This document shows positions 13,592 to 61,451 of a stretch of DNA of 64,000 bases, piece by piece. Origin of the DNA: a virus. Where the stretch lies: IMG/VR virus record IMGVR_UViG_3300032288_003288. One strand, written 5' to 3'. Numbering within the stretch: the first letter of the stretch is position 1; each line of letters opens with the position of its first letter. Made by a program: the position numbers and the translations under genes. Below the pieces are notes generated by a model that saw nothing but the letters and a program-made list of their open reading frames with translations, was not told the origin of the DNA and did not search any database.

Positions 13592-15406
13592 TTATTCTCT
13601 TATTGGAATAATATCGATAACGACATCTTGGGCTGAGATATTAAGAATGATATCTTTTGATGAAAAGATGTCTTTGACTCGTGGTTTGGCATAGATCTTG
13701 ATGTCTGTGCCGTCGTATCCTTCAGTCTTGAAGTTTGCCAAGAATATTTTTCCAGTCTCATAATCCACTGTGCCAGCGAAGCCTAGACTCGTATGTTGCT
13801 GATTAGATTCGCTCACCGAGATGTATTCTAAGTTGCCCATCCCATCGTCTTCCAAGTACACTCTCTGTCCGTTCAAAGTTTTGAACGGAGTAGACTCGAT
13901 GATGTGTTCTTCAACAATAGGATGGAAGTTGCCTGTAGTAACTACAGTAGTCTTCAGAGGAATACCAAAATTGAGCTCATAGTTCTTAGTTCTATTGAGT
14001 TGCGGCCTAAAGTACTTGACTGCTAGAACATCTGTCTCGTTGGACACTATTCCCGTTGCAGCAGAGTCGATCGACTGAACGAGCTTTGAGTATCTCATAG
14101 TACGATTGAAGTCGTTGAGATTGTCATTTGCATAGCGCTGAATGGCTGCCATGACCAGCAACTTAAGATCTCCCGTACTAAGAGCAGAGACGTTGACGTT
14201 GTATCTGACCAACGATCTTACTGAGATATACACGTAGTCGGGATTTGTAAAGATGGGTTCGATCGAGACCATTGTGCGTGGCTTAAGGAAGTTGTAGTAT
14301 TCTTCGATCTTACCAGAAGGGAGAATGTCGGTCTCTTTAAGATCTACTGCCACAAAGACTCTTCCATATTGCGGAGGATCTACAGTCTCACCACCAAATG
14401 CTGAGACTGCATTGATTTCGGGGAAGTTGAGTTTGAGTAGGTTCTCAAAGTCTTCTGTGGTAACAGCGCGTTCTTGAGTAGTAAAGGCTCGAGGAGCATT
14501 AAACTTGATAGACTCCATCGTCTCGTTGACCGAGCCAGCTTCTGCCTTCTTATTTGTAGTAATGAGAATGTCGCTAGATCCGCCGATAGAAGCGTCTGGC
14601 CTAAATTGATTACATCCGTTAGGAAGCTCGCCTTGACTGATGCGATATTCGATGACCACCACGGAGTTGTCTTTTGGTTTACGGCCGATGACGTCGTCTC
14701 CAAAAACTATCTCATATGTGTTATTCTCTGCACCCTGTAAGAAAAATACTTTAGACGTCTCATCATATCCAAACAACGAAGTCGCTCGTTTGTACGTCTG
14801 AGTCGTGGCACCCAGATCTTCTAGCACCGTGACGTTGATGCTCGAGATGTCTACTTGGCGATTAGATATCAAGAATCTCTGCACCGTTCCAGGCACGGTA
14901 GTGTATGTGTCTGTGACGTATGTGCCTTCATAGATATCAACGTTTTGTTCTAGAAAGGTCGAGATGTTACCGGTAACACCCGTCTTATTTGTACAGACGA
15001 TATTCTCTGAAGTAGTAAAAGTAAAGACTCTGTCATTAAATCGTGAAGTAAACGAAGTGCCCTTAGGAATACTGATAGCGCGCGTTTCTGGATTGGTAAC
15101 GCTGATTCGAATATTGACGTTGGCTACAGCAGAAGTAAAAGATGCAGGCGTGTAGTTAAGCTCTTTGGCATGAGAGACGACAGTATCTCTTAGCTGCGCG
15201 GTGTCCAAGAACATCTCGTTGCCCACCATGTTCAGATAGAACGAGTTCATGTATGTGTTGTATGCCAATAGATCTAGCAAGACTGAGATGTTTGATCCCT
15301 CAAAGTCATAGTCTTTGAAACGATCTTGCGACCGCAGATACTGTTTGAAAGTATTCTTTAGTCTTTCGAAGTCTAGATTGCTTAGGATTACACTGGTATT
15401 TGCCAT
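13592..15406 (-). CDS. gp6: Baseplate wedge subunit gp6
   Basis: LDFERLK, DYDFEGSNISVLLDLLAYNT, EMFLDTAQLR and QERAVTTEDF motifs. Confidence 0.92.
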   Translation of the reverse strand: MANTSVILSNLDFERLKNTFKQYLRSQDRFKDYDFEGSNISVLLDLLAYNTYMNSFYLNMVGNEMFLDTAQLRDTVVSHAKELNYTPASFTSAVANVNIRISVTNPETRAISIPKGTSFTSRFNDRVFTFTTSENIVCTNKTGVTGNISTFLEQNVDIYEGTYVTDTYTTVPGTVQRFLISNRQVDISSINVTVLEDLGATTQTYKRATSLFGYDETSKVFFLQGAENNTYEIVFGDDVIGRKPKDNSVVVIEYRISQGELPNGCNQFRPDASIGGSSDILITTNKKAEAGSVNETMESIKFNAPRAFTTQERAVTTEDFENLLKLNFPEINAVSAFGGETVDPPQYGRVFVAVDLKETDILPSGKIEEYYNFLKPRTMVSIEPIFTNPDYVYISVRSLVRYNVNVSALSTGDLKLLVMAAIQRYANDNLNDFNRTMRYSKLVQSIDSAATGIVSNETDVLAVKYFRPQLNRTKNYELNFGIPLKTTVVTTGNFHPIVEEHIIESTPFKTLNGQRVYLEDDGMGNLEYISVSESNQQHTSLGFAGTVDYETGKIFLANFKTEGYDGTDIKIYAKPRVKDIFSSKDIILNISAQDVVIDIIPIRE

Positions 15407-26404: not shown

Positions 26405-29358
26405 TGGCAAGAGGCCCAAAAGTAAGAGCACCTGGCTCCGGCGGCGGAGGATCACGTGGCGGTCGTCGCGGTGGAGCTGGAGGAAAGAGAAGAGCGAGTG
26501 GTGGCGGCGGAAAGAGTTTGGCCGCGGCAGCAGCTCTGTCTGCACTCTTCGGCGGAGGCGGACTTGCTTCTGGTGTAAAGGGCAAGAAAGGTGGTCCAGG
26601 CGGAGCAGGTGGTCGCGGAGGCGGCGGCGAGGCAGAATACAAGCCTTTACCTTCTTTTAATAAGCCTACGGCTCAAGTCAAACGTTACTCTAATCCTACG
26701 CTGAGCAACATATCCGACCAGATCGGTATGATGGTTCGTGGCCTCGTTATTCAAGAAAAGCTATTAGAGAGACAGAGCCAAGATCTACAATTTGGTTACA
26801 AGGAAATGGCTCGAGCTACGCGTGAAAAGAACGCAGAGTCCGGAGCCATGGCCATCGGAGGATCTGGCGCTTTGCCGATGGATGCCATCAAGAGCATGGC
26901 TGAATCATTCTCGGCCTTTGATCTTGCTTTGAAAGAAGCGACGGCTCTACTCAATGACATCAATGAAAACGGGGGCGGCGCCGGAGGACCTGGAATGCCG
27001 CTTGGTGTTCCAGACAAAGCTCCTAAGACTGCTAGAAAGCCTCCTCATAAATCATATCAATTTGTTCCTAAAGCTCAGGCGCTAGATGCTGACGGAGCAG
27101 TTAAAAAGGGTTTCGAAGCCGTAACAGACAAGAACGGCAGAGTAGTAGGTTATAGAAAGAAGCCTGGATTCATCGAGCGACAGCGTAGACAGATTACACG
27201 TGACGTCAAAGCCTTAAGACAGGCTGGAGTAAAAGCTTTTCGCCAAAAAATTCGTAACCCATTCATGAAGTTTTATCGCACACAAAAGAGGCGATTGACT
27301 AAAGCATTCACTCGTGTAAAAGATGCTGCTATGGCCAAGCTTGGAGAATGGGGACAAGCCGCCAAGAATGCCATGGGAAAAGTCGGCGGGCGGGCTGGAC
27401 AAGTACTAGAGAAGATCCTCAAAGATCCAAGAGTCAGTAAAGTATTAGAAGCTATCAAGAAAGCCGGTGGCAGAGTAAATGCCATGACTCTTGGTCGTGT
27501 CGCGCTCTACGTCTGGGCTTTATGGGAGCCTATCTCGGGAATCTTTAATACTTTTAAAAATAAAGACAAGCTTTCTGACAATGAGTTTAAGCAGCAGATG
27601 TCGCAACACGTCGCAGATCTTATCTCTGAGGCGGGTGTTCTTGTAGCCACCGAAATCGTATCTGCGTTTGTTCTAGCAACAATAGGTTCAGTCGTTCCGG
27701 GTATCGGTACAGTCATTGGTTTCATCTTAGGTCTGATCGTAGGTGGTTTCGCCTACGCTATCATCAGCTTTATCTATGGAAAGACAGCAGAAGAAGCTGT
27801 CGAAGGCGTCATACAAAAACTAGTCGGTCTTATCATCGAAGCTGCCTATAAGATTAGAGGAAACAAACGAGAGTCTGCCAGCAGAACTACTCCGGCTCAG
27901 ACTAGACCGCAGACTAGAGGTGGAGCTGCACAAAATACGCAAAAAATAAGCGGCAGCGGTACAGTTCCTCGCGGAGGTGGAGCTAAATCCAATCTCGGAG
28001 TTATCAAGAACCTAACAGTAGCAGACATCATCAACGACGCTGCGCAAAAGGCAGGGATCGATCCTGTAGCTCTGATGGCAATTGCTAGTGAAAATGCCGG
28101 GTTTGATCCTCGCAAGAAGATGGAAAACGTCACAGGCAAAGAGTTGTTTCCGCTGACTCAAGAACAATGGAAACAAATTACAGGAAAATACGGCTCGGCA
28201 TTTCCTCAGCTTAAAGCTGGTATCAATGATCCTCGTGCGGCATCTATAGCATCAGCGCTTCTTCTCAAAGACGCTCAAGATTTCTTGGCTACAAATAAAT
28301 TGCCTACGACTGCGCCTGCGCTCTATGCATCATGGCTGTTCGGTCAAGACGGTGCTTATAAGTTACTTACATCAAAACCTGACGACGTGGCATCGAAGCT
28401 TCTTCCTGAAGCCGCAGGAAGAAGGCCAGAACTATTTAAAAACTCTGCTGGTCAAGACGTAACATCTCAAGAATTAGTCAAAGCTTTGTATGACACCACC
28501 GTCAGAACAAAGAAAGAAGCAGGCGGCAAAAAGAGTAAGCGAGCTCCCGGTGAAACTAACGGAGGTTCATCTTCAAGCCCAAGCGGCGGAGGAAATACTT
28601 CGCCCGAGGGGGCAACACCTGCTGCTTCTCCTGCCGCTGCCACTCCGGCACCGGCAGCTAGTTCATCTTCTCCAGGCGCAAGCTCCACTGGCGGAGAAAC
28701 TGCTTCTCCAGCCGCTGCAGCTGCTCCTGCTGCGAGTACTGGCGGAAATGCTTCCGCAACTCCTACAGCCTCTTCTCCCTCTGCAGTTCCGGCAGCTGGA
28801 ACTCCTCCAACACCAGGCGCTACAACTACACCTGGAGGAATGGCTAAAGTAGAATTGCCGGGCGATAAAGCTCCAACGCCCGGTGCTCCAAGTGCAACTT
28901 CTCCAGGAGCAGTTCCTGCAGGAGGATCTTCTCCGACTCCTGGTTCAGAAATAAACAAGGCGGCAAAAGCTGAGACAGAAGGTGCTCCAGCAGCTCCAGT
29001 CGATCCTAAAAAAATCAAGGAAATAGAAGAAAAGGGCCAGAAAGAAGCAGCTCTTAACGGTGCTCCGGCCGCGGCAATTCCTACACCTGGAGTTCCTCCT
29101 GCAAAAGATATGGCGGCTAAAGTCTCTGCTGCGTCTAAAGAAATTGAAAAAGAATTAAACACTCCGACGTCTCAGGTCAACAGTGAGCCTAACACAGAAG
29201 CTAGCTCGCGTAAGCCGGCGATACTTCCATCAGGCTCTGCAGGTAGAGCCGGCACTGGTCTCGTTCTTTCTCCATACTATAATCCTGGCGATATCTCCAA
29301 GTCCATATACTTTTCACCCATTACATATCCAGCTGACGCTGCTGGTTCGAGGTCATAA
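26404..29358 (+). CDS. Tape-measure-like protein with hydrophobic helices and a degenerate SLT-like domain
   Basis: Gly/Ala/Pro-rich; hydrophobic GSVVPGIGTVIGFILGLIVGG segment; SLT-like IDPVALMAIASENAGFDP region. Confidence 0.65.
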   Translation: MARGPKVRAPGSGGGGSRGGRRGGAGGKRRASGGGGKSLAAAAALSALFGGGGLASGVKGKKGGPGGAGGRGGGGEAEYKPLPSFNKPTAQVKRYSNPTLSNISDQIGMMVRGLVIQEKLLERQSQDLQFGYKEMARATREKNAESGAMAIGGSGALPMDAIKSMAESFSAFDLALKEATALLNDINENGGGAGGPGMPLGVPDKAPKTARKPPHKSYQFVPKAQALDADGAVKKGFEAVTDKNGRVVGYRKKPGFIERQRRQITRDVKALRQAGVKAFRQKIRNPFMKFYRTQKRRLTKAFTRVKDAAMAKLGEWGQAAKNAMGKVGGRAGQVLEKILKDPRVSKVLEAIKKAGGRVNAMTLGRVALYVWALWEPISGIFNTFKNKDKLSDNEFKQQMSQHVADLISEAGVLVATEIVSAFVLATIGSVVPGIGTVIGFILGLIVGGFAYAIISFIYGKTAEEAVEGVIQKLVGLIIEAAYKIRGNKRESASRTTPAQTRPQTRGGAAQNTQKISGSGTVPRGGGAKSNLGVIKNLTVADIINDAAQKAGIDPVALMAIASENAGFDPRKKMENVTGKELFPLTQEQWKQITGKYGSAFPQLKAGINDPRAASIASALLLKDAQDFLATNKLPTTAPALYASWLFGQDGAYKLLTSKPDDVASKLLPEAAGRRPELFKNSAGQDVTSQELVKALYDTTVRTKKEAGGKKSKRAPGETNGGSSSSPSGGGNTSPEGATPAASPAAATPAPAASSSSPGASSTGGETASPAAAAAPAASTGGNASATPTASSPSAVPAAGTPPTPGATTTPGGMAKVELPGDKAPTPGAPSATSPGAVPAGGSSPTPGSEINKAAKAETEGAPAAPVDPKKIKEIEEKGQKEAALNGAPAAAIPTPGVPPAKDMAAKVSAASKEIEKELNTPTSQVNSEPNTEASSRKPAILPSGSAGRAGTGLVLSPYYNPGDISKSIYFSPITYPADAAGSRS

Positions 29359-43328: not shown

Positions 43329-43694
43329 TTACTCTTCTCCAGTTTTATCTACAACGATATCTAGGTCATACTTATATTCTAGATTTCCATCTTCGTGTTC
43401 GAACAGAGAGAACGAAGATTCAGTGAAGTCGTGCAGCGCGTGTTCTAGGTCTAGTGACTTATAGACCAGCGCCTTGAAGCTCTCGCAAAATAAAGCTAGA
43501 TCCTTGCCGCACTTTTCACTGTCGATATCCAATCCTCCTTCGAGGATGATCTGAATAATATGCGGAAAGGCCATAGTCATCATGTAATCTGCGCGAGCTT
43601 TGCGAAGAGTTGCTATAGATTCATGCAACTCTTCAAGCGATTGCGGTGGACTCTCGCCCTTGGCTTTAGGAAATATGATAACATTATTTGTCAT
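43329..43694 (-). CDS. Hypothetical protein
   Basis: NNVIIFPK start and HALH motif; coupled to the upstream gene. Confidence 0.7.
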   Translation of the reverse strand: MTNNVIIFPKAKGESPPQSLEELHESIATLRKARADYMMTMAFPHIIQIILEGGLDIDSEKCGKDLALFCESFKALVYKSLDLEHALHDFTESSFSLFEHEDGNLEYKYDLDIVVDKTGEE

Positions 43695-44824
43695 TTAATG
43701 ATCCGCAACAGGATGGTATCTGTATTTATACGTCCGTTAGGCTTGGACTCGACAGTCTTGAGATCATCCATTATCTTTCTTAGTGCCACACGCCCTGCTC
43801 CAAGCAACTGCTGTATGGTGATATCTGGCTTGCGCAAGCTTTTGGTCGATGACTTGTCGACATCGTAGCCAATAAGCGTGGTACCCTTCACTTGGATCCC
43901 AGTTGGGCCAACAGCGTCGTACCTCGTCAGCCTCTTGTACTTTGTATTGTAGGTCCATAGTTGCTGACATCCCACGATCTCGACGGGGTTAACAGATACG
44001 ATCTTGAGAGGAGCGAACTCCTTCTGGAACTTGAGCTTCTCGACCTGCTTGGCCAGAGGCTTCTCGCGAATCGTCTTTGGCTTGCGAACCTTGGTGACCT
44101 TCTTGTTGCCGATGTACCGATTCAGATCATCGATGACCGCCTGCATGAAAGCACGTTCATCCTTTAGCTTCTTACCAAAAGCTTCTTTGACCTGCTCATC
44201 GTCGCTCATGACCTCGTCATAGATCGGCTGGTAATAAGCCAGCATGAAGCGAGCTGCAGCAGGAGTGGCTGTGTACTTCTGCAGAAACTCATACATCGAT
44301 CCACGCTCATCGATGACTTTGCCTTCGGCGTCAGACAGAAGCTGATTGTTCCTGGCCTTTGTGCGAGCCTGAATGTCGACGATCGGCTTTGCCTTAGGAA
44401 CCTGAGGCTGCTCTTCAGTCTCTTCATCGAGACGGATGCGAGCTGCTCCCATCTCCTCGATGCGAGTGACGATCCATTCCTTGTTCTCTGCAGCAAGCTT
44501 AGTACCGTTCAGCGCCATCTTGGCGATCCAGCCAGGGGTGGTGCTGACGAGTTTATCAGGGATATCGCGAACGATCTTGCTGAGGTCTGCACGACCTTCG
44601 ATCTTGAGATACTGAAGCAACCACTGCTTTGCCTTGGAGGCATCGTACATGTAGTTGTACCAGTTGAGGACTTCCGTCAGACGAGGATCTCGCCGACCAG
44701 TCAGTTCCTCGAGGATGGGCTCGTCGCCCATGTACTTGCTATCGAGCGAAGCGTTGCGACGGTTCGAGATAGGCTTCTTCTTGATCTTCTGTGTGATGCT
44801 CTTTTTAGCCACGTTTTTCTCCAA
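43691..44824 (-). CDS. Conserved T4-like hypothetical protein
   Basis: C-terminal YNTKYKRL..KGTTL..KSLRKP..NGRINTDTILL motif. Confidence 0.8.
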   Translation of the reverse strand: MEKNVAKKSITQKIKKKPISNRRNASLDSKYMGDEPILEELTGRRDPRLTEVLNWYNYMYDASKAKQWLLQYLKIEGRADLSKIVRDIPDKLVSTTPGWIAKMALNGTKLAAENKEWIVTRIEEMGAARIRLDEETEEQPQVPKAKPIVDIQARTKARNNQLLSDAEGKVIDERGSMYEFLQKYTATPAAARFMLAYYQPIYDEVMSDDEQVKEAFGKKLKDERAFMQAVIDDLNRYIGNKKVTKVRKPKTIREKPLAKQVEKLKFQKEFAPLKIVSVNPVEIVGCQQLWTYNTKYKRLTRYDAVGPTGIQVKGTTLIGYDVDKSSTKSLRKPDITIQQLLGAGRVALRKIMDDLKTVESKPNGRINTDTILLRIIK

Positions 44825-44885: not shown

Positions 44886-45482
44886 TCAATACTTTAGGTC
44901 TTCAGGATCTAGGTAGGTATGGCGAGCCCTGATGTTTTGAGCTATGAAGTGCATGATGGCTTGACTCACGTCCTCTACGATACCGTAGTTTCCTGATGGG
45001 ATGTGAATGGCCACGTCTGCCAATTCTTTGGCCTTTCCTCCATCGAACCCGAGGATGGCGATCGACTTCATGCCGATCTCTTTGGCCATCTTGAGAGCAT
45101 TGATGATATTAGGACTGTTGCCGCTCGAGCTGATGGCAATCAGCAGGTCGTCTTGAGCTGCTGACCAAGATAGCTGCTTAGAAAACACATGCTCAAAGCC
45201 GATGTCGTTGGCCACAGCAGTCATCATAGAATCGTTGCAGTTCAGAGACACGATCTTCGGAAAGAAGTTTGTATCGCATGCCACGCCTTTGACGCAGTCA
45301 CATACCAGATGGTTTGAGATGGCAGCAGAGCCGCCGTTACCACATGAGTAGATCGTGCCACTGGTAACGTAGGCTTCTACGATCAGCTCTATCGCACGTT
45401 CAACCTTATTGGCTTCAACGTTATCCAAAGCCTTTGATAGATGGTCAGAGTACTCGAATAAGCTCTTAATCACGGTAGACAA
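44886..45482 (-). CDS. gmhA: Phosphoheptose isomerase (SIS domain)
   Basis: CGNGGSAA, AND.GFE.VF, ISSSGNSPNI and EDV..H motifs. Confidence 0.9.
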   Translation of the reverse strand: MSTVIKSLFEYSDHLSKALDNVEANKVERAIELIVEAYVTSGTIYSCGNGGSAAISNHLVCDCVKGVACDTNFFPKIVSLNCNDSMMTAVANDIGFEHVFSKQLSWSAAQDDLLIAISSSGNSPNIINALKMAKEIGMKSIAILGFDGGKAKELADVAIHIPSGNYGIVEDVSQAIMHFIAQNIRARHTYLDPEDLKY

Positions 45483-46413
45483 CGCGTGCTCCTTCGTGTG
45501 CGCATTGAATGATTAGACACTCGCGATCACTAAACTCTTCATGCAGAGCAGGATCGTCTTCTGACAGGGCTAGCATGTATCCTCCGCCGCCGGCACCGAG
45601 AAGCTTGGCACCCCATGCTCCTGCCTTCATGCAACGATCGTACATCTCGTCGATGGTACTGTTTGAGATGCTGTCATCCATCTGCTTCTTTAGTTGCCAC
45701 GCAGACACCAACAGAGCTCCGTATTCTTTGGCAGTCATAGGCGGTTGACCATATGTCATGTCTGCCATATCGGCCAGAGAACGAATTACGAACTGTTTAG
45801 CGTCGAAGTTGATGTTGCCGAGTATCTCAGATGCATGTCTCTCGATGTTAGTAGGGATCAGAGTAATGTAGGGTTCAATGAATGCGGGATTCATGCGACT
45901 TACTCTAATGTTGCCTTCATTACTATACTTGATATAGTTCATTCCACCAAGAGCAGACGCATACTGATCTTGCTTACCGATCTTCCATTCACACATGTCT
46001 AATTCAATATGACATGCTAGTTCGGCTACGTCGAGTTGATTGTACACATCTCCCATTCCAATGTATTCTGTAATGGCCCTGATCAGTGCACAAGTAAAGG
46101 CAGACGATCCACCAAGACCTGTACCGATCGTGGGAATGTCTGCGAAAGATGTGATCTCGATGTTAGATCGAATGTTGAAGTACTTCAGAACGTTCTTGAC
46201 GATCTCGTTCTGGAGATCTTCTACGTCAGTCACGCACTCTTGTTTTGAATAAGAGACTTTGATATGATTCTGAGGAGTGTACATGACAGCTACATAGACG
46301 TAGCGATCAATGGCCATGGAAATGGTAGCTCCACCCCATTGCATGAAGTGGGCCGGAATGTCCGACCCACCTCCGAAGAAACTAATTCTAAGCGGCGCTT
46401 TTGACAGAATCAT
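45466..46413 (-). CDS. hddA: GHMP kinase, D-glycero-alpha-D-manno-heptose-7-phosphate kinase-like
   Basis: APLRISFFGGGSD, GTGLGGSSAF, IGKQDQYA and GAKLLGAGGGG motifs. Confidence 0.88.
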   Translation of the reverse strand: MILSKAPLRISFFGGGSDIPAHFMQWGGATISMAIDRYVYVAVMYTPQNHIKVSYSKQECVTDVEDLQNEIVKNVLKYFNIRSNIEITSFADIPTIGTGLGGSSAFTCALIRAITEYIGMGDVYNQLDVAELACHIELDMCEWKIGKQDQYASALGGMNYIKYSNEGNIRVSRMNPAFIEPYITLIPTNIERHASEILGNINFDAKQFVIRSLADMADMTYGQPPMTAKEYGALLVSAWQLKKQMDDSISNSTIDEMYDRCMKAGAWGAKLLGAGGGGYMLALSEDDPALHEEFSDRECLIIQCAHEGARVVYRD

Positions 46414-47407
46414 TCGTTGCTTCCCTGCGTGCCTTATCTGCCTTGAGCGAGTTGATCAGCGCCTTCCAGCGAAGCGAGATCTTGTCCCAACCGAAGCGAT
46501 TGTCGGTGTATGCTTTGATGAACCCGAGCATGTTGGTCATGTCGTTGTTCATGACGTTCTCGATGGTGTACATCAGGTTATGAGCAAAGATGTTGGCGTG
46601 CATGTTGGGATCCGTATGATCGCCATCATACTGCACAGTCAGACCAGCAGAAGTATCGGTCAGAGCTGAGAAGTTAGGATGGACCGCAACGCAACCAGCA
46701 CTCATGGCTTCAATCAGTGAACGACACGAAGTCTCAGGCCAAATACATGGATATGCAAAGATGTGTGCCTTCTGATAAGCTTCACGAACCACTTCGTTAG
46801 GCTGCCATCCGTAGTAGTTGATCTTAGGATGATCGCGGCATGCCTTGAAGAGCGACTCAAACTGGGCATCACGCTGCTCCCACTTAGGACCATAGATGCC
46901 GAATGAGGAATAAACATCCAGCTCGATGTTGTCATACTTCTTACAGAGAGACATAAACACTGGCACCAAGATCTCAAGGCCGCGATGCGGCGTCGAAGTG
47001 TAGATAAGACGAATGGTGTCCTTCTTGTTCTTCTCGACAGGATCGAACGGAATAGGATCGATGCCAGTCTCGATCACGCAACTCTGTGCACTGTACGGGA
47101 CTCCGAGGAAATCGCGATAGTGCTGATACTGCCAGTTAGAAGAGAATACCAGCTTATCGAAGCGGGCCCGACTGTCCTTTTCCTTGAGATGCTTGCACTC
47201 AGGATCCATGGCCAGATCATGAAGATGGTAGATCTTAATCTTGTCATCGTGTAGCTCGCGTACGCGAGACGAGATGATCTGTACGCCTTCTAGTTCTTCA
47301 CGCGTAAGACGGTTGAAGAGGGCTCGTGTGGTCAGCTCAGTGCCACCTTGCGAGTCTTGATTAAGTTCATTGAACTCGATCAAGTCTTGGTTCTTAAGGT
47401 CTTTCAT
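46388..47407 (-). CDS. GT-B glycosyltransferase (GT4-like)
   Basis: GGTE, YTSTPHRGL and ETSCRSLIEAMSAG (E-x7-E) motifs. Confidence 0.88.
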   Translation of the reverse strand: MKDLKNQDLIEFNELNQDSQGGTELTTRALFNRLTREELEGVQIISSRVRELHDDKIKIYHLHDLAMDPECKHLKEKDSRARFDKLVFSSNWQYQHYRDFLGVPYSAQSCVIETGIDPIPFDPVEKNKKDTIRLIYTSTPHRGLEILVPVFMSLCKKYDNIELDVYSSFGIYGPKWEQRDAQFESLFKACRDHPKINYYGWQPNEVVREAYQKAHIFAYPCIWPETSCRSLIEAMSAGCVAVHPNFSALTDTSAGLTVQYDGDHTDPNMHANIFAHNLMYTIENVMNNDMTNMLGFIKAYTDNRFGWDKISLRWKALINSLKADKARREATNDSVKSAA

Positions 47408-47724
47408 TGCAATGCTCCAGTAAAATACATATCAGAATTGATGGCTTTATCGTCGATCCAAATATCATAAGATGGCTTGCCCATCCACAGCTCTTTATAC
47501 TTGCATCCCCATGAGTCAAGTTGATTTTTTGTCAACTCAGCCCAATCGAGGCCAGTCGAAGAGCCACGTGCAGTCCAATAGATGATGGTCTCTCCTGCAT
47601 CGTGTAGCTTGTTGATTGCTTCGATGCGACCGGGCAAAGGTTCTGCCTTGTCGTACTGACGAGATCCATCTTCGCCAGTAAACGAAGTGCAGATGGTGTC
47701 GTCGATGTCGACCACATAGATCAT
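47404..47724 (-). CDS. Small HAD phosphatase (capsule-biosynthesis/EcbF-like; GmhB-equivalent candidate)
   Basis: DIDDTIC, WTARG and GKP..D.WIDDK motifs. Confidence 0.85.
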   Translation of the reverse strand: MIYVVDIDDTICTSFTGEDGSRQYDKAEPLPGRIEAINKLHDAGETIIYWTARGSSTGLDWAELTKNQLDSWGCKYKELWMGKPSYDIWIDDKAINSDMYFTGALQ

Positions 47725-48029
47725 CTATCAGTCTCCGAAAACCCGATTACAGAGTCGTAGCGAAATGAGCGCCAACCCTCCTTCTCGAGGTCGTATACGG
47801 CCAAGATGTCAGGATTTTGAGTCTTCTTCTGCACCGACTCTTCTATATCTATCTGTGCAGGCAGGAGATCGGGATTGAGGGTGCAGAGCATATCTCGCAC
47901 AGTCCCGTCTTTCTTGATAAAGTTGACCTTGAGGACCTTAGTCTTCAGCTGGTCTCGGAGAAAAGTATTCCTCCACGATGTCTCGCTCGACGCTTGGTTC
48001 GAACCATTCTGTAAGTTTGTCAAATCCAC
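47721..48029 (-). CDS. WYL-like (Sm/SH3-fold) protein
   Basis: FIKKDGTVRDMLCTL..VYDLEKEGWRSFR motif. Confidence 0.8.
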   Translation of the reverse strand: MDLTNLQNGSNQASSETSWRNTFLRDQLKTKVLKVNFIKKDGTVRDMLCTLNPDLLPAQIDIEESVQKKTQNPDILAVYDLEKEGWRSFRYDSVIGFSETDR

Positions 48030-48273
48030 CGATGTTCACTCCGTCAATAATAATAAATGGGACACTACGCACGTTAGGAAAGATACTCACGAAATCTTCT
48101 CGCGTAATATCTGATCCTATACCAACTTGAGTGTATTGTAAACCCTTTTGTGTCAAAAGATTCTTGGCCGCATCACAATACGGACAGTTTTCTTTGGTAT
48201 AGACAATGATCTTACTCACTCTCTTTACTCTTGTAAATGCTATAAGATTTGTTAGGATCGCCCCAATAGGCAT
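47938..48273 (-). CDS. Glutaredoxin
   Basis: CPYC, RSVPFI and IGGF motifs; true start probably near 48220. Confidence 0.9.
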   Translation of the reverse strand: MPIGAILTNLIAFTRVKRVSKIIVYTKENCPYCDAAKNLLTQKGLQYTQVGIGSDITREDFVSIFPNVRSVPFIIIDGVNIGGFDKLTEWFEPSVERDIVEEYFSPRPAED

Positions 48274-48594: not shown

Positions 48595-48984
48595 TCACGT
48601 TAATATGCCTTTGTTGATAAGAGTCAGATCATGTTCTCTGTCTATATACTTATACTCGACCCGGACTGGCTCGAACTGCATTATAGCAGAAAATACATCT
48701 TGGATGTTGAGAGTCGAGCATGTGTACACGTCCAGTTGCATCAGGCCAGGATCTTCTTCGTCCCAGATATGCAACGCGATGTGTGATGTCTCGATGATAG
48801 TGACTGCTGTGAGTCCTTGATTTCCCGGCATCGCAGAGTAGACGGCGTATGGCCCCATCAAAATCTTCATTCCGATGGTCTTGACAAGATTACTCATCCA
48901 GTCCTGAATCATCTCTGGGCTTTTGGGAGGATTGTTTAGAGTCGCCCGGACTATAAGATGTTTGTGCTCAAGAATCTTAGACAC
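48595..48984 (-). CDS. speD: S-adenosylmethionine decarboxylase proenzyme
   Basis: IETSHIALHIW and QLDVYTC motifs. Confidence 0.88.
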   Translation of the reverse strand: MSKILEHKHLIVRATLNNPPKSPEMIQDWMSNLVKTIGMKILMGPYAVYSAMPGNQGLTAVTIIETSHIALHIWDEEDPGLMQLDVYTCSTLNIQDVFSAIMQFEPVRVEYKYIDREHDLTLINKGILT

Positions 48985-48985
48985 T

Positions 48986-49420
48986 TCATAAAATCTCCGT
49001 ATTGTTATCGATATTCTTTTTAAAACAAAGGGCTTTCACGTGACTCGTCTGTACTTTTACAGCTGCCCAACTGTTATAGTAGTCCTCATCAAGGATCGCA
49101 TCTACTTCGAACATATACTTCATCTCGTAGTAGTTGCATTCGCCTCTTGTTTTACATAGTCTAAGAATACGCCTCACGAACTTGTCTGTACCGTACTTTT
49201 CGACATCTTCTCTCAGAGAAGGCGACGAACCGTAATAGTCTTTCCAATCCGATTCAACACGGATTTTTTTACGTTTGCCTCGTACTTGTTTGTATCCGGC
49301 TTTGGTTAGGTATTTTCTACCTATATACTTTTTTCCGTTGACTGTACACGTTATTTCGTAAACAAAGCCGTAATAGTCGTCAACATTTTCAAATTCTTTA
49401 TCTTCTATCAACCAAGTCAT
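48986..49420 (-). CDS. GIY-YIG endonuclease
   Basis: GFVY..YIGRK, WKDYYGSS and YYN motifs. Confidence 0.85.
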   Translation of the reverse strand: MTWLIEDKEFENVDDYYGFVYEITCTVNGKKYIGRKYLTKAGYKQVRGKRKKIRVESDWKDYYGSSPSLREDVEKYGTDKFVRRILRLCKTRGECNYYEMKYMFEVDAILDEDYYNSWAAVKVQTSHVKALCFKKNIDNNTEIL

Positions 49421-49633: not shown

Positions 49634-50719
49634 TCATAGCGAGAATCCCCTGAATGTATCTGCATCGACATCTTTTTTGACACCGCCGATGACATAGCTA
49701 GTGATCTCGGTTTCCTGTGGTGCCACTTGAACATCAGAGCCGCTGATCCACTTCTGTGTCCACGGCAACGGATTTGCACCTGGCTTACCGTTCAAGCCTA
49801 CTGCTCCCATTCTCTTGGCAGCGATATGATCTACGTATTCAGCGAGCAGCTGTTCGTTCAGACCGATCATCGATCCGTCCTTGAATAGATAACTCGCCCA
49901 AGCCTTTTCTTGGTCGACCACTTTGTAAAACATATCAATACACTCATCCCGTGTATCTTCCCGAATCTGTTCAAAGTCTGGATCTTCTTTTGGAAGAATC
50001 TTGAGGAGCTGCTGAGTTGAGGCAAGGTGAACGTTCTCGTCCCGTGCAATGAGTTTGATGATCTTAGCATTTCCCTCCATCTTCTTGACTTCGGCGAAAG
50101 CCCATGAGCATGCAAACGAGACATAGAACCGTACTCCTTCGAGCGCATTCACCGCATTGAGACAGAGCCAAAGAGCCCGCTTATGATGATACGTATCTTT
50201 CTTGTTTCCACCAAACAACGAGCGCTGATTGTTATGTGTGATCAGACGATCGTAATACTTGCTAATGTCCTGTGCGCAGTCTACGATTTCCGGAAGATCG
50301 AGCATCTCGTCGAAGACTTTCGACGGGTCGTTGTAGACGTTACGAATGATGTGAGTGTAGGACCGAGAATGTATCGTCTCAAAAAATGCCCACGTCTGGA
50401 TCCAGGTTTCAAGCTCAGGTATCGAACACACAGGAAGAAAAGCCATAGAAGGGGCTCGACCCTGCACGCTATCAAGAAGGATCTGACGTTTGAGATTCGA
50501 TGTGAAGATGTGTTTTTCATGGTCTGTTAATGCCTTAAAGTCCTTACTGTCGCGAGACAGATCGACCTCTTCTGGACGCCAGAAGAAGCCGAGTTGTTTC
50601 TCAGTAAGTTTTTCAAAAATAGAGTGACGCTGCTTGTCATAGCGAGCTATATTGACGGATTCTCCAAAGAAACACTTTTGCTCAGTTGCATCAAACTTAT
50701 TTGTATTGAATACGGTCAT
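49634..50719 (-). CDS. nrdB: Ribonucleotide reductase class Ia beta subunit
   Basis: FFWRPEE, LDSVQGR, ETIHSRSY, RDENVH and VAPQETEI motifs. Confidence 0.97.
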   Translation of the reverse strand: MTVFNTNKFDATEQKCFFGESVNIARYDKQRHSIFEKLTEKQLGFFWRPEEVDLSRDSKDFKALTDHEKHIFTSNLKRQILLDSVQGRAPSMAFLPVCSIPELETWIQTWAFFETIHSRSYTHIIRNVYNDPSKVFDEMLDLPEIVDCAQDISKYYDRLITHNNQRSLFGGNKKDTYHHKRALWLCLNAVNALEGVRFYVSFACSWAFAEVKKMEGNAKIIKLIARDENVHLASTQQLLKILPKEDPDFEQIREDTRDECIDMFYKVVDQEKAWASYLFKDGSMIGLNEQLLAEYVDHIAAKRMGAVGLNGKPGANPLPWTQKWISGSDVQVAPQETEITSYVIGGVKKDVDADTFRGFSL

Positions 50720-51261
50720 TCAACTCTCCAGATACTTGTATTCAATTTAAGATCCTTTGGCCAATCGCCTTCTGTATATGACTTGTCGTGGAATCTCATC
50801 TCATTGGTCGGCATTATCGATAGTCGTCCATTGTCTAGCTGTAAAAACATAAACTCTTTAGACTGAGATGGATCTTGAGTGAATCCATCATACATGGGCA
50901 CTACTGTAAACAAGTATCTGCCCATATGATTACCATTTTTTACCTCTGCCCTCTGTCCGTTTAAGTAGTCGTACTTGACTACAGAAAACTGATCGCCGTA
51001 ACAATCCCAAATCTGACAGTCGAGTAGAGACCATTCGGGTTCAGGATTCTCAGAGAAAGCTATGGCATGCGGAGGAACTCCCCGATAGACTGCTCCACAT
51101 TCTAACATTACATGACATCCCCACGAATGTCCTGCTTTTGCATGTAAAGCAAACCAAATACACGATTCAAATGTATTTGGTTTAGCGTTTTTTCTAATAA
51201 AAGAAGAGTCTACATAACAGTATATGTGGTGTGGAATATTACCAGAACCGGTGTAAAGCAT
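50716..51261 (-). CDS. Conserved phage hypothetical protein between nrdA and nrdB
   Basis: GAVYRGVPPHA, WDC and LDNG..PTN motifs. Confidence 0.75.
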   Translation of the reverse strand: MLYTGSGNIPHHIYCYVDSSFIRKNAKPNTFESCIWFALHAKAGHSWGCHVMLECGAVYRGVPPHAIAFSENPEPEWSLLDCQIWDCYGDQFSVVKYDYLNGQRAEVKNGNHMGRYLFTVVPMYDGFTQDPSQSKEFMFLQLDNGRLSIMPTNEMRFHDKSYTEGDWPKDLKLNTSIWRVE

Positions 51262-58865: not shown

Positions 58866-59924
58866 TTATTTTCCAGTCGTAAATGGCTTGAATCTCTTGA
58901 TTGGTTTGCCAAATAGCTTCTTGTTCTTTGGATCTGCAACAGCTCCCGAAGACATGTTGTTGGTAGGAACCCCACCAGCAGCGCCCATTTCTTCGTCTAC
59001 CTTGTCTACCTTGGCATGAGCTTTGGCCTTGGCCAGCCCACCTTCAGTGTCTCGCCAATCTTTTCTTTGACCCCACTTGCTCAGAGACTTGAGCGCAGTG
59101 GTTCCATCTGAACGTGTATAGCGCTTTATGCTGGGTTTTCCAGGTGCACGAGCTTCGCTCAGCTCTGTGCTCATATAATCTGTAGCCGTCTGAAGATAGT
59201 CGTAAGCTAGAGTGATCTTCGATTGGACCCATTCAGGAAGGTCTGTGTCGGGCTTAAGCATACCATGCATCTTGTCCGCATGCATCATGATGCCCTTGAG
59301 CTGAGACATGACCATCTCGCCTTCGTATCCATATTCTCTTGAATCTTTTGCTTCAGCCATCTCTCTTAAGTCCTTGTCGGCACCATGATACGTACCTTTG
59401 CCTTTACGAATGTAAGCATTTACACGAGCGTGACCCCATTGCTGAGGCGTAGTTCCTGGTCTGTGACCAGAATTCCATGCTGCAACTCCTCGCTTATACA
59501 CCGTCTTGAGTGTAGATAGCGAGATGCCTGTCTTCTTGGCCTTTGCGGATAAAGAAGAGTCTGCCTCATTGACTTCGTCTTTCTTATCTTTTTTAGAAAG
59601 ACTTTTCAACACGTCTCTTTGCTTGGCGTGAGTCTTGACAGACTTGTCGAGCTGACCAACAAATTTTTTCAGTTTCTTGTTGACAGCATCAGGAATCTCT
59701 ACTTCTTGCTCTTTCATCATTTTTCTAACTTCTATGGTAGCCTTGCTTGGTCTAGTTTTTGCTCTAGCATCCCCTGGCGCAGGTTCATATGCACGAGGAT
59801 CGCGATCAGAGTACTTACTCATCTTCTTCCAATGGGCTTTTCTAGCTTTTGCAGTAGAAGCGCTGAGCTTACCGACATATGGCTTCGGTAATCCAGACTC
59901 CTTGTGCTTGTCTACTTTGTCCAT
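58866..59924 (-). CDS. Basic modular head-associated protein (DUF5824-like segment)
   Basis: VYKRGVAAW.SGHRPG..PQQWG.ARVN and DLPEWVQSKITLA segments separated by VNE/LSE/VDE motifs. Confidence 0.7.
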   Translation of the reverse strand: MDKVDKHKESGLPKPYVGKLSASTAKARKAHWKKMSKYSDRDPRAYEPAPGDARAKTRPSKATIEVRKMMKEQEVEIPDAVNKKLKKFVGQLDKSVKTHAKQRDVLKSLSKKDKKDEVNEADSSLSAKAKKTGISLSTLKTVYKRGVAAWNSGHRPGTTPQQWGHARVNAYIRKGKGTYHGADKDLREMAEAKDSREYGYEGEMVMSQLKGIMMHADKMHGMLKPDTDLPEWVQSKITLAYDYLQTATDYMSTELSEARAPGKPSIKRYTRSDGTTALKSLSKWGQRKDWRDTEGGLAKAKAHAKVDKVDEEMGAAGGVPTNNMSSGAVADPKNKKLFGKPIKRFKPFTTGK

Positions 59925-60316
59925 CAGATCTTCCTAAGAACGTCTACGATATATTGGTCTAGAGGTATTTCACTACTGATAATCGTCTCGTTTTGAAACC
60001 CAATTCCTGTAACAGTTTCTGGCATTCGACCTAAAAATACCAAGAATGGTTTTAAGTATTGATGATAGTTCTTAAGTCTAAATAACAATAACTTTGTAGC
60101 AGAATTGCCGAACACGTTATACAAGATAATCAAGTGATTGAGGATTAGTCTCTCTTTTAATTCACCAGTCTCTACATACTTGTTAAAGTGTCTCTTGATA
60201 TACTTTATACGTTTTAAATCTTCGTAAAACTCTAGCGTGTCAAAGCACTCTGGATTATCATAGTGTTTTGCAGCATACAATACAAAGTTGGTCTCATCTA
60301 CTTTATCATCTATCAT
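59924..60316 (-). CDS. Conserved T4-like hypothetical protein
   Basis: YAAKHYDNP..EFYEDLKRIKY..ERLILNHLI motif. Confidence 0.85.
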   Translation of the reverse strand: MIDDKVDETNFVLYAAKHYDNPECFDTLEFYEDLKRIKYIKRHFNKYVETGELKERLILNHLIILYNVFGNSATKLLLFRLKNYHQYLKPFLVFLGRMPETVTGIGFQNETIISSEIPLDQYIVDVLRKI

Positions 60317-60567
60317 TATGTAATTCGTACTTTGACGACTCCTGCCGCTGTGTAGTATAGTTGACCTAATAGAACGCCTGCTGTGTTTGCGGCAGCATCA
60401 TCAGCAAATGGGCCTTGAACGACTGCTTTACGAATAGTCGCCAGAGTGGCAGACTTGGTCGAGTTAGCGGAGACATCCACCAATGGGAAGAGGTCTCCGC
60501 TAGCAATCGAGTTGTTGGCGGTTCCAATAGATGTCAGTTCAGATATTTTCTTGGCACGATCTGACAT
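60316..60567 (-). CDS. Small virion structural protein
   Basis: KKISELT start and FADDAAA..G..GQLYY motif. Confidence 0.65.
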   Translation of the reverse strand: MSDRAKKISELTSIGTANNSIASGDLFPLVDVSANSTKSATLATIRKAVVQGPFADDAAANTAGVLLGQLYYTAAGVVKVRIT

Positions 60568-60578
60568 ATGTTATATCC

Positions 60579-61451
60579 TTACGCGTCTGGTAGAGTCTTA
60601 TCGTCAGTCGCGTCGTTTGTGAAGTTGCCGCCGAATGCAACGAGCGTCTCATACTGTACACGACCAGCGCGACCGCCAGTACCGACTGTGCGAAGTAGCC
60701 AGCCAGTGTGAGCAGCGCCCTTGGTATAGCCACGCTCTGTGAGAATAGCCACAGCTGTAGCTGTCTCTCCAGTCAAGGTATGAGTTTCGCCTGGGTTTGT
60801 AACACGAGCGTCTGTAAGATCGATAGCTGTACCACCCTTGGTAGCTGAGATCTTGACCGACGTAGTGTTGGCAGCTACTACGTAGTAGTAAGAGTTGCCT
60901 GTCAGCGGAGCGATAGCTGTGTTATTTGTCGGCACAGTGTAGTATACCTTATCACCCACCAGCAACTTCGAGTTGGCTGTCGAGATGAGAAGTGTGTCCG
61001 CCGTGTTGCTGAAACCAGTCGAGTTGGCTGTGATGTTGATCGCAGCAGGAGCAGCTATCGTTACAGATGGAACAGACGTGTATCCGCCCACCGTTACGTT
61101 TGCTGTCACAGCTGTGACACGACCAGTAGCGACTGTCGAGTTTGCAAGAACCGTGTTAGCACCACCAGATGTATTGGCTACTGTGACAGCTGCGTTTGCC
61201 GCATAGCCAGAACCTGCGAAGGTGATGATGTACTGTTGAACCGCCGCGTTGCCGCTGACACGAATTTCTGTAGCATCAAGACCAAATTGACCGACGCCTT
61301 TGTTCATTGCAACATTGTTGTTCTTGAACGCTTGCACGGTCGTGTTACCAAACAGATTAGTCTGGTTGGTCGTATTAGGTGTTAAGTTCACTGCTGTAGT
61401 GGCCCAAAGGACCGAATTCGCAGCATCGTCTGTTTTTCCCCACTGGGCCAT
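60579..61451 (-). CDS. Virion structural (decoration/fibre-like) protein
   Basis: MAQWGKTD start, AHTGW..GRAGRVQYETLVA end, Asn/Thr-rich beta modules. Confidence 0.75.
   Translation of the reverse strand: MAQWGKTDDAANSVLWATTAVNLTPNTTNQTNLFGNTTVQAFKNNNVAMNKGVGQFGLDATEIRVSGNAAVQQYIITFAGSGYAANAAVTVANTSGGANTVLANSTVATGRVTAVTANVTVGGYTSVPSVTIAAPAAINITANSTGFSNTADTLLISTANSKLLVGDKVYYTVPTNNTAIAPLTGNSYYYVVAANTTSVKISATKGGTAIDLTDARVTNPGETHTLTGETATAVAILTERGYTKGAAHTGWLLRTVGTGGRAGRVQYETLVAFGGNFTNDATDDKTLPDA

Follow-up and report, generated by a model that had tools for sequence, protein, structure and literature searches.

A candidate heptose-activation module attached to a conserved GT4-type glycosyltransferase in T4-like phages

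Introduction

Heptose nucleotides are building blocks of the bacterial envelope and agonists of innate immunity. Phage genes for heptose synthesis are already annotated in GenBank (in Cr30 and in cyanophages) and have been discussed in papers. In pelagimyophages, rfaE and glycosyltransferase genes were noted among the "LPS-related AMGs" and modification of the host O-chain was proposed (PMC7029224). A recent study by Tang et al. (2024, Science 385:678) of the cross-kingdom "HBEs/HENases", as presented in a commentary (PMC11461863), determined that viral NDP-heptose enzymes make ADP-heptose in vitro, and the commentary describes viruses as lacking the phosphatase.

A record of an uncultured T4-like phage (IMGVR_UViG_3300032288_003288) raises the question of what a phage would make, and what it would glycosylate, with sugar-phosphate enzymes placed around a glycosyltransferase of its own. 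The window analyzed here is a stretch of 64,000 nucleotides of this record. We will describe the locus, the enzymes that it encodes and the sugar that they may activate, and we will then weigh the possible acceptors, including phage DNA.

Organization and conservation of the locus

The operon occupies the minus strand from 47724 to 44886. Its genes and their neighbors are listed below in the direction of transcription.

Glutaredoxin, NrdC-like: 47938..48273, minus strand; PF00462, E 9.6e-12; first recognizable gene in the co-directional stretch that leads into the operon
WYL_2 (DUF2693) small protein: 47721..48029, minus strand; PF10902, E 2.5e-15
Mini-HAD phosphatase: 47404..47724, minus strand; 106 aa, BcbF/EcbF type
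GT4-type GT-B glycosyltransferase, retaining: 46388..47407, minus strand; 339 aa, Pfam PF00534 and PF13692
HddA/WcbL-like GHMP sugar-1-kinase: 45466..46413, minus strand; 315 aa
GmhA-like SIS sugar-phosphate isomerase: 44886..45482, minus strand; 198 aa
Basic protein, phrog_11903: 43691..44824, minus strand; 377 aa, pI 9.66, flanks the operon

The first-pass annotation had described four overlapping and coupled genes encoding a HAD phosphatase, a GT-B glycosyltransferase, a GHMP kinase and an isomerase, and the ORFs (which have exactly the same coordinates), their overlaps and the family matches agree with that description. The HAD/GT4, GT4/kinase and kinase/SIS pairs overlap by 4, 26 and 17 nt, and by these overlaps the four genes are translationally coupled. 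The stop codon of the WYL_2 gene also overlaps the HAD start, in ATGA. The nrdA, nrdB and grx genes are co-directional with the operon unit. The TATAAATA box, which marks structural genes and is enriched in the window (7 found vs 1.7 expected), was not found ahead of the operon, so that no late promoter was detected there.

The 377-aa gene is preceded by a 61-nt AT-rich spacer. It adjoins the module in most of the related loci and is absent from loci of the L077, L095 and L089 types; its product is 27% identical to the corresponding Cr30 neighbor. The gene is probably a separate unit and a non-obligatory partner of the module. The protein was considered as a partner or acceptor of the glycosyltransferase and set aside, given that its structure model has a pTM of 0.32, that searches of PDB, the Atlas and fold neighbors returned nothing beyond uncharacterized viral proteins, and that several module-bearing loci do without it.

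No near-identical phage was returned by megablast when the region was compared with 50,697 phage records. Relatives are abundant, with more than 593 for the GT4 protein in IMG/VR and orthologues at 40-47% identity in DLP6, Cr30, RHph_I1_18, the phages phiM12/M7/M19/N3 and Ochrobactrum phage OC. Matches in metagenome-assembled genomes were left out, as they are mostly on small contigs of inconsistent taxonomy and are probably mis-binned phage DNA. The slot of the GT4 gene is the same, Grx-WYL_2-GT4-...-RNase H, in more than 590 IMG/VR loci as well as in phiM12, Cr30 and DLP6. Grx precedes the slot in Cr30, phiM12, DLP6, RHph_I1_18 and many IMG/VR loci, and phiM12 shares the order Grx-DUF2693-GT. 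The kinase and SIS genes follow GT4 in 36-38 of the 48 informative related loci, which makes a chance grouping unlikely; GT4 stands alone in 9, and the mini-HAD gene adjoins it in 19. In Cr30 (KF301602) the order is Grx-epimerase-GT-kinase-small ORF-isomerase-365-aa protein, with identities to the window proteins of 43% (GT), 37% (kinase, annotated in Cr30 as "D,D-heptose 7-phosphate kinase") and 46% (isomerase). In the cyanophage SynMITS9220M01 (MT408532) the order is GT-kinase-isomerase-HAD::NTase-epimerase. Compared with these two annotated loci, the window has a stand-alone HAD gene upstream and no adjacent epimerase, and its genome also makes hydroxymethylcytosine. GT4 is the old, lineage-conserved core of the locus and the sugar genes are variable add-ons.

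Enzymes of the module

The 315-aa kinase has HddA as its best NCBIfam match (NF049969, E 2.8e-33, 116 bits vs a cut-off of 600) and the heptokinase WcbL as its best PDB match (4usm, E 1e-28, with GHMP motifs II and III and QDQY aligned). It carries the motifs GLGSSA, QDQY and GAGGGG and matches phrog_34407 (E 1.5e-60). We propose that it acts as an anomeric kinase on D-glycero-D-manno-heptose-7-P.

The HAD protein is only 106 aa long and retains intact DxDxT, T-A-R-G, K and DD motifs (as DIDDT, TARG, GKPSYD and IDDKA). The closest solved structure is a 134-aa "capsule biosynthesis protein" (PDB 9iqw, E 3.5e-9); the protein matches phrog_1238 (E 4e-30), with weak matches to HAD_PNKP and TIGR01689 (EcbF/BcbF). 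GmhB enzymes are HADs of ~180 aa in the histidinol-phosphatase-like subfamily, and no GmhB model matched the 106-aa protein. The mini-HAD shares 46% identity with the N-terminal half of the HAD::nucleotidyltransferase fusion of SynMITS9220M01. We propose that it may be a heptose-1,7-bisphosphate 7-phosphatase and a functional analogue of GmhB. The mini-HAD is a candidate for the phosphatase said to be missing in viruses.

All of the best matches of the SIS protein are to GmhA. The models NF010546 (E 5e-36) and TIGR00441 (E 4e-35) were both matched below their cut-offs (124 bits vs 276 for GmhA), and solved GmhA structures were matched with E 3e-28 by the window protein alone and 2e-38 by the profile of its clade. 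None of the 21 SIS matches is to a KdsD/KpsF model. The sugar-phosphate loops GNGGS and SSSGNS are retained. At the catalytic/zinc site, the phage clade has His-x3-Asp and Glu-Asp-x-His where GmhA has His-x3-Glu and Gln-Glu-x-His. The window copy alone goes further and reads VEDVSQ, with Ser (codon AGT) where 11 of 11 relatives and every solved GmhA in the alignment have His. The window isomerase could be weak or inactive, or could act on another sugar phosphate. An extreme form of this idea is that the gene is decaying through the His-to-Ser change, and that the module relies on the host GmhA or is heading toward the GT4-only state, which is found for example in locus L060, whose GT is 73% identical to that of the window. 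We regard this as improbable, as the ORF is full length and still translationally coupled and every residue invariant in the phage clade is retained. Additionally, one solved-structure study argues that this His, buried in the protein, binds zinc and is not the catalytic base (PMC7705670).

The AlphaFold model of the glycosyltransferase (pLDDT 92, pTM 0.90) has the GT-B fold with two Rossmann domains and a C-terminal Glycos_transf_1 domain. In the E-x7-E motif, E225 is invariant and E233 nearly invariant (alignment A1), and these features place the protein among the retaining GT-B enzymes of the CAZy GT4 type. Its nearest folds are BshA, PimA, MshA, HepE and glycogen synthase. Since these are generic GT4 neighbors, the fold searches did not discriminate between acceptors. 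Two further clues to the acceptor were tried and abandoned. The isoelectric point of the family, whose members are mildly acidic (pI 5.2-6.5), was uninformative, and an inositol-1-phosphate synthase, which might have pointed to an MshA/PimA-like acceptor, is encoded only in Cr30. Two bacterial homologues lie in settings that we count in favor of the explanation given below, one (L132) beside AIDA-repeat adhesins and a TPR-GT9-like protein, and the other (L135) beside MlaA and MlaC.

The first-pass annotation had found no nucleotidyltransferase in the window, and this holds. In the 133-kb record (79% complete) there is no match to PF00483, the HddC-type guanylyltransferase family, for which the control was positive in 14 of 14 genomes, and all of the PF12804 and PF01467 matches lie outside of the window. 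A search for HddC/HldE-type transferases in the rest of the genome, which had been recommended with that annotation, was negative for the HddC type and positive for an RfaE-II/TagD-like ORF that is located ~30 kb from the operon and cut by the contig end. The fragment matches phrog_7878 (E 3e-20), and its best NCBIfam model is rfaE_dom_II (29 bits vs a cut-off of 181); full-length orthologues in relatives reach 68-77 bits on this model and have HxGH and S-S/T-T motifs. The connection with the operon comes from the relatives. The fragment and the C-terminal half of the SynMITS9220M01 fusion share 38% identity; the order NTase-epimerase-GT4-kinase-SIS occurs within one operon in L077, L095 and L084; and each of the four longer genomes bearing the kinase and SIS genes (G000, G003, G004 and G005) has an orthologue. 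A GT identical to that of the window is found on a 158,560-bp contig (P0001), and the complete NTase gene is expected there. The predicted enzyme has an Arg located five positions ahead of its S-S/T-S/T motif, a hint that it may be able to use CTP or UTP. A 203-aa PF01467 protein (C1:124518-125129) was rejected as the pathway enzyme, since it resembles NMN adenylyltransferases and is not related to the fusion protein of the cyanophage.

A proposed hybrid route to an activated heptose

Since none of the four enzymes comes near its curated equivalog cut-off, the identity of the substrates is read from family resemblance and synteny. In the pathway that we infer, the GmhA-like SIS protein would convert sedoheptulose-7-P to D-glycero-D-manno-heptose-7-P, and the HddA/WcbL-like kinase would phosphorylate C1, probably giving the alpha anomer. 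The mini-HAD would then remove the 7-phosphate, the small RfaE-II/TagD-like transferase would form the NDP-heptose, and the retaining GT4 enzyme would transfer the heptose as an alpha-glycoside. HddA-type kinases yield alpha-heptose-1-P, and the NDP-sugars used by retaining GT4 enzymes are alpha-linked. The combination of an alpha-type GHMP kinase with a retaining GT4 enzyme is thus chemically coherent. RfaE-II-type enzymes, in turn, are known for beta-heptose-1-P, so that the anomers of the two predicted partners would not match, and the NTase gene is truncated in the record and non-adjacent to the operon; both are counter-points to the heptose pathway. Where hosts supply enough donor, GT4 alone may be sufficient, and the add-on genes of the window phage would free the supply of donor from the host.

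The first-pass annotation had assigned the operon to the GDP-heptose pathway (GmhA, HddA, GmhB and HddC), with three of the four steps present. That assignment has to be revised. A SIS isomerase, a putative GHMP anomeric kinase, the predicted removal of the 7-phosphate and nucleotidyl transfer after it, and a consumer outside of the GT9 family would be shared with that pathway, whereas the window differs in having a BcbF/EcbF-type mini-HAD in place of GmhB, no HddC/PF00483 protein, an NTase with the cytidylyltransferase fold (RfaE-II/TagD-like) located elsewhere, and an altered isomerase site. The putative RfaE-II-like heptose NTase would be shared with the ADP-heptose pathway and with the enzymes of Tang et al., viral members of which were reported to be active. 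The kinase, however, belongs to the GHMP (HddA) family instead of PfkB (HldA/HldE), a search of the record for GT9 heptosyltransferases (PF01075) had no match, and the consumer is a retaining GT4. By its family matches, the predicted pathway is a cross between the GDP-heptose and the ADP-heptose route. The four enzyme classes and their coupling are confirmed, and the broader proposal that the phage diverts sedoheptulose-7-P into a heptose donor for its own GT remains the best reading.

The module might instead activate a sugar other than glycero-manno-heptose, such as a different aldose phosphate formed by the divergent SIS protein, or its SIS and HAD proteins might serve a phage Kdo pathway, in which case the heptose label would be carried over from annotation. 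The low scores are compatible with this, as are the Glu-to-Asp and Gln-to-Glu changes that are invariant in the phage SIS clade. An arabinose pathway uses the same enzyme logic for a different sugar, and the genome encodes KdsA (305 bits, above cut-off) and KdsB, with neither KdsD nor KdsC. The epimerase, dehydratase and methyltransferase add-ons of the relatives are variable, which shows that the final sugar differs among phages. Against this, the SIS protein, the kinase and the NTase each have a heptose enzyme as best match independently (GmhA, HddA/WcbL and RfaE-II), KdsD/KpsF models are missing among the SIS matches, the phosphate-binding loops of GmhA are conserved, and the kinase-SIS pair accompanies GT4 in phages where no Kdo genes were found beside the pair. 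Activation of another sugar is quite unlikely on this evidence.

Acceptor of the glycosyltransferase

Glucosylation in T4 and arabinosylation in RB69 and DLP3 are examples of DNA protection by sugars. By analogy, GT4 could place heptose on the 5-hydroxymethylcytosine of replicated phage DNA and guard it against restriction and type IV nucleases. The search for DNA hydroxymethylases proposed at the first pass was positive, as the genome encodes a T4-type dCMP hydroxymethylase (gp42, E 6e-85 to T4 gp42). The protein keeps the T4-type motifs FMCTN and RSNDVVFG.RND, with Asp and not the Asn signature of 5-hydroxy-dCMP synthases (PMC13326640). In T4-type glucosylation the hydroxymethylase is combined with AGT or BGT; here gp42 is present, and neither the alpha- nor the beta-glucosyltransferase family (PF11440 and PF09198) was detected in the genome, in searches run without a positive control, which weakens this point. 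Heptosylation of DNA is conceivable from the presence of gp42 together with the lack of a detected T4 glucosyltransferase. The operon is also located among nucleotide-metabolism genes (grx, nrd, rnh) with no late promoter; G004 combines gp42 with the GT4 module; and Cr30 and DLP6 lack gp42 but have TET/JBP dioxygenases together with GT4.

A close precedent is the arabinosyl-5-hydroxycytosine system of RB69, DLP3 and HY126 (AfhE/AfhF; PMC13326640), which is also found in T4-like phages. The isomerase-kinase-HAD-NTase-GT4 logic of the module mirrors its UDP-arabinose route, in which a SIS isomerase, a C1 kinase, a HAD for the distal phosphate, an NTase and a GT4-like GT-B enzyme take part, and the DNA transferases of the three phages match the same fold neighbors BshA, PimA and MshA. 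The systems differ in their components. The Afh system has a KdsD-like isomerase and an APH/protein-kinase-like kinase fused to a PF00483-type NTase, whereas the window SIS protein has no KdsD/KpsF match and its kinase is a stand-alone GHMP protein. The 5-hydroxycytosine of the Afh system is made by a ThyA homologue with an Asp169-to-Asn change, whereas the ThyA homologue here is a true gp42 that keeps the Asp (RSND).

Heptosylation of DNA is disfavored because gp42 has a cassette of its own and because several GT4 phages have no enzyme for a hydroxymethylated base. In G000 and G004, gp42 is flanked by a conserved five-gene cassette that includes a PLP enzyme and is the more obvious consumer of hydroxymethylcytosine. 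The phages phiM12, RHph_I1_18 and Ochrobactrum phage OC and the genome G005 (85% complete) have a GT4 orthologue with neither gp42 nor TET/JBP, and ThyA, where present, is canonical, as it is in Cr30 (Pfam-family search). In sequence, GT4 does not resemble the DNA transferases of T4 or RB69, and the mild acidity of its family also counts against a DNA substrate. We consider it unlikely that GT4 heptosylates DNA, giving 5-(heptosyloxymethyl)cytosine in gp42 phages and acting, in Cr30 and DLP6, on a hydroxymethyl base formed by TET/JBP. If true, this would be the first seven-carbon sugar on a nucleobase, supplied by a hybrid phage NDP-heptose pathway.

We favor an acceptor other than DNA that phages of widely differing hosts would share, namely a protein of the phage or the host, or else a precursor of an envelope glycoconjugate. 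A protein and an envelope glycan or lipid are given equal weight as the two leading candidates, neither of them close to even chances; hydroxymethylated DNA and a small molecule or other acceptor follow, again equally weighted. A single conserved protein, of the phage or of the host, may for example be heptosylated by GT4 in all of the GT4 phages. The words glycosyl, heptose, hydroxymethyl, modified and restriction are not mentioned in the phiM9 paper (PMC4621102).

Conclusions

The locus is probably an auxiliary sugar-activation module, expressed early or in the middle of infection and attached to a GT4 glycosyltransferase that has been retained throughout a large lineage of T4-like phages, with an activated heptose as the likely product and a non-DNA acceptor favored. 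To the phage heptose genes described previously it adds a predicted hybrid route composed of an alpha-type GHMP kinase, a mini-HAD and an RfaE-II-like transferase. This route is tied to one glycosyltransferase in a fixed slot of hundreds of aquatic and soil T4-like phages, including the cultured phages Cr30, DLP6 and phiM12. With cultured carriers, it can be tested directly in the laboratory whether the targets that lytic phages glycosylate with rare sugars of their own making are DNA, phage proteins or the host surface.

Genome context and organization of the operon

The window spans bases 55862-119861 of a 133,314-bp IMG/VR record whose completeness is estimated at 79%. Judged by its gene content, the source virus is a T4-like myovirus, as the record encodes a gp44 clamp loader, a gp45 sliding clamp, a T4-type RNase H, NrdA, NrdB, and PhoH and contains TATAAATA late-promoter boxes. 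The four overlapping, coupled genes described in the first-pass annotation were recovered as minus-strand ORFs at exactly the expected positions, with overlaps of 4, 26, and 17 nt between successive ORFs. The features of this region, in window positions, are:

50716-51261 (-), 181-aa ferredoxin-like gene (phrog_3704) between nrdA and nrdB, conserved in several relatives
48986-49420 and 48595-48984 (-), two small genes between nrdB and the glutaredoxin gene, both conserved in relatives
47724-47404 (-), HAD
47407-46388 (-), GT4 glycosyltransferase
46413-45466 (-), GHMP kinase
45482-44886 (-), SIS isomerase
43723-43730 (-), TATAAATA late-promoter-like box; others at 2430, 15855, 23507, 23528, 34951, and 35775 (7 in total)

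The HAD ORF starts in an ATGA that also holds the stop codon of the WYL_2 (DUF2693) gene before it, which is preceded by a glutaredoxin gene, and the unit is co-directional with nrdA and nrdB. One of the two small genes between nrdB and the glutaredoxin gene matches phrog_447 ('NAD synthetase') and homing-endonuclease families. The TATAAATA boxes are over-represented in the window (7 seen, 1.7 expected) and mark the structural genes as well as a small gene at 43694-43329. The box before this 121-aa gene falls inside the end of the gene for the neighboring 377-aa protein. When the window was scanned no copy was found upstream of the operon, which suggests early or middle expression of the unit.

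The four operon enzymes

Profile searches returned the enzyme classes originally proposed for the four genes, and all substrate assignments are based on homology below curated cut-offs combined with synteny. The HAD protein (106 aa) is a HAD of minimal size in which the DIDDT, TARG, GKPSYD, and IDDKA motifs are intact; the closest solved structure is 9iqw, a 134-aa 'capsule biosynthesis protein' (E 3.5e-9), and it matches TIGR01689 (EcbF/BcbF) weakly and the GmhB models not at all. The glycosyltransferase (339 aa) is a GT4-type GT-B enzyme that matches PF00534 and PF13692 and has an E-x7-E motif with conserved E225 and E233. The folds closest to its AlphaFold model (pLDDT 92) are BshA, PimA, MshA, HepE, and glycogen synthase. 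The GHMP kinase (315 aa) has HddA as its top family at 116 bits (cut-off 600), and among solved structures it is closest to the heptokinases WcbL, 3k85, and 4n3o (E 1e-28 to 7e-23), to which its GHMP motifs align.

The top matches of the SIS protein (198 aa) are exclusively GmhA models, with scores under their cut-offs. Twelve phage homologues were aligned and a profile search was run against solved GmhAs; both show that the sugar-phosphate loops GNGGS and SSSGNS are kept in the phage proteins. Throughout the phage clade His-x3-Asp and Glu-Asp-x-His are found where GmhAs have His-x3-Glu and Gln-Glu-x-His, and among the 12 homologues the last His is replaced by Ser (codon AGT) in the window copy alone. 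The roles of the GmhA active-site residues are treated in PMC7705670.

Nucleotidyltransferase and proposed pathway

The first-pass annotation read the operon as a GDP-heptose pathway (GmhA, HddA, GmhB, HddC) lacking one step. The isomerase, kinase, and phosphatase classes stand, and the GmhB identity does not. No HddC-type (PF00483) gene was found in the whole record (79% complete), and the search of the rest of the record for a transferase instead found an RfaE-II-like ORF at the right contig end.

C1:133014-133314 (L010, a part of the source record, 14014-14313) (-), nucleotidyltransferase (NTase) ORF broken off by the contig end, phrog_7878, E 3e-20
C1:4994-5782 (-), 262-aa SDR between the gp44 clamp-loader and gp45 clamp genes (L007, another part of the record)

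Among NCBIfam models, the NTase ORF is matched best by RfaE domain II and glycerol-3-P cytidylyltransferase. Synechococcus phage SynMITS9220M01 encodes a 261-aa HAD::NTase fusion whose C-terminal half shares 38% identity with this ORF and whose N-terminal half shares 46% with the HAD of the window; the fusion gene lies directly after the cyanophage's kinase and isomerase genes. Additionally, in three related loci (L077, L084, and L095) an operon of NTase, epimerase, GT4, kinase, and SIS genes opens with a full-length orthologue of 138-148 aa and 55% identity (in L077 at 8579-9025). Another full-length orthologue lies at L120:3895-4323, and the related phage genome G004 (99% complete, no adjacent NTase) has its orthologue elsewhere. 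The genome's other PF01467 protein, of 203 aa, resembles NMN adenylyltransferases and is unrelated. The best NCBIfam match of the 262-aa SDR is ADP-glyceromanno-heptose 6-epimerase at 74 bits, far under the cut-off, and the SDR is missing from the equivalent position in G004. NTases of the contig-end family carry an Arg five residues ahead of the S-S/T-S/T motif, a feature linked to CTP or UTP use in a commentary (PMC11461863) on Tang et al. 2024. We tentatively propose that the phage NTases use CTP or UTP.

We infer a five-step pathway in which sedoheptulose-7-P would be isomerised to heptose-7-P, the GHMP kinase would phosphorylate C1, the mini-HAD would remove the C7 phosphate, the small NTase would activate the sugar, and the retaining GT4 would transfer it. 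An HddA-type (alpha) kinase and a retaining GT4 are a chemically coherent pairing. To our knowledge, an HddA-type kinase paired with an RfaE-II-like NTase has been described for neither textbook pathway.

Conservation of GT4 and variation of its neighbors

Orthologues of the GT are found at 40-47% identity in the cultured phages DLP6, Cr30, RHph_I1_18, phiM12/M7/M19/N3, and Ochrobactrum phage OC, and more than 593 GT-related stretches are present in IMG/VR. The neighbors were counted at 48 GT4 loci with enough flank.

Genes neighboring GT4 (number of the 48 loci)
Kinase and SIS after GT4: 36-38
HAD adjoining: 19
Methyltransferase adjoining: 13
Epimerase or dehydratase adjoining: about 10
NTase adjoining: 9
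GT4 alone: 9

One lone GT (locus L060) is 73% identical to the window GT, and in phiM12 the order Grx, DUF2693, GT, 388-aa protein, 120-aa protein, RNase H is that of the window without HAD, kinase, and isomerase. Given this variable composition, the lone GTs, and the phiM12 order, the sugar genes are variable accessories to an old GT. In the 13 loci with a methyltransferase, a 251-aa Methyltransf_24 gene separates the isomerase gene from that of the 377-aa protein (L016:11516-12271, L066:12477-13232, and 11 others), an arrangement suggesting that the sugar of these phages is methylated. The 377-aa basic neighbor (phrog_11903) is frequent yet missing from several loci that retain the module; its gene has its own AT-rich upstream spacer, and a structure model and fold search gave no informative match.

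The acceptor

The GT could act on DNA, protein, or an envelope glycoconjugate. The operon is surrounded by nucleotide-metabolism genes, and the search of the rest of the genome for a DNA hydroxymethylase found a T4-type enzyme outside the window.

C1:12935-13582 (L007) (-), T4-type dCMP hydroxymethylase (gp42), E 6e-85 to 1b49
C1:7034-12752 (L007) (-), cassette after gp42: phrog_1574, phrog_480, phrog_13881, a PLP 'threonine dehydratase'-like protein, and a 384-aa protein
Cr30 59353-60681 (L108) and DLP6 about 27833-28279 (L109), TET/JBP dioxygenase-domain proteins, ~445 aa each, 77 and 70 bits
C1:37570-40531 (L009:1570-4531) (+), cupin, Kdo-8-P synthase, CMP-Kdo synthetase-like, 2OG-Fe(II) oxygenase, and GT2 cluster

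This hydroxymethylase is ~65% identical to T4 gp42, has T4-type active-site motifs, and retains the Asp that separates hydroxymethylases from 5-hydroxy-dCMP synthases. A T4 glucosyltransferase was not found in the genome by searches run without a positive control, and the pathway logic resembles the UDP-arabinose system of RB69 and DLP3. G004 also has gp42, and the TET/JBP domains suggest oxidised pyrimidines in Cr30 and DLP6 DNA; in Cr30 the protein carries the annotation 'SNF2 DNA repair protein'. However, the GT is present without gp42 or TET/JBP in phiM12, RHph_I1_18, OC, and the related phage genome G005 (85% complete), canonical ThyA is encoded by Cr30, phiM12, and RHph_I1_18, and the five-gene cassette with the PLP enzyme follows gp42 in both the source genome and G004.

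That the GT is conserved at 40-47% identity between phages infecting Alpha- and Gammaproteobacteria points to an acceptor shared by all GT-bearing phages. Clear chromosomal bacterial homologues occur in only two contexts. One (45% identical; L132:1049-12795, a 1.41-Mb contig of an uncultured alphaproteobacterium) lies among AIDA-repeat adhesin genes, near a second GT4 gene with a 'GT4-conflict' match and the gene for an 818-aa TPR protein that weakly matches GT9; the other (L135, a SAR11 cell; 33% identity) adjoins MlaA and MlaC. The same phage has a separate KdsA/KdsB/GT2 island, in which the Kdo-8-P synthase scores 305 bits, over its cut-off, and which is convergent with radical SAM/SPASM and methyltransferase genes; neither KdsD nor KdsC was found for it. 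Host O-chain modification has been proposed for pelagimyophages (PMC7029224). We regard protein and envelope glycoconjugate as equally possible acceptors, each of them doubtful, and consider DNA, like some other acceptor, improbable.

Relation to known systems

A 'D,D-heptose 7-phosphate kinase' and a 'phosphoheptose isomerase' are already annotated beside a GT in Cr30 (2013) and cyanophage records, and rfaE and glycosyltransferases are listed as auxiliary genes in pelagimyophages (PMC7029224). Viral NDP-heptose enzymes are active, and viruses were reported to lack the phosphatase, according to Tang et al. 2024 as relayed in PMC11461863. The predicted hybrid make-up of the heptose pathway is new, as is the assignment of the mini-HAD as the probable phosphatase of viruses, backed by the HAD::NTase fusion. 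A third new finding is that a very large phage lineage has one GT in a conserved slot, to which the sugar genes are accessories.
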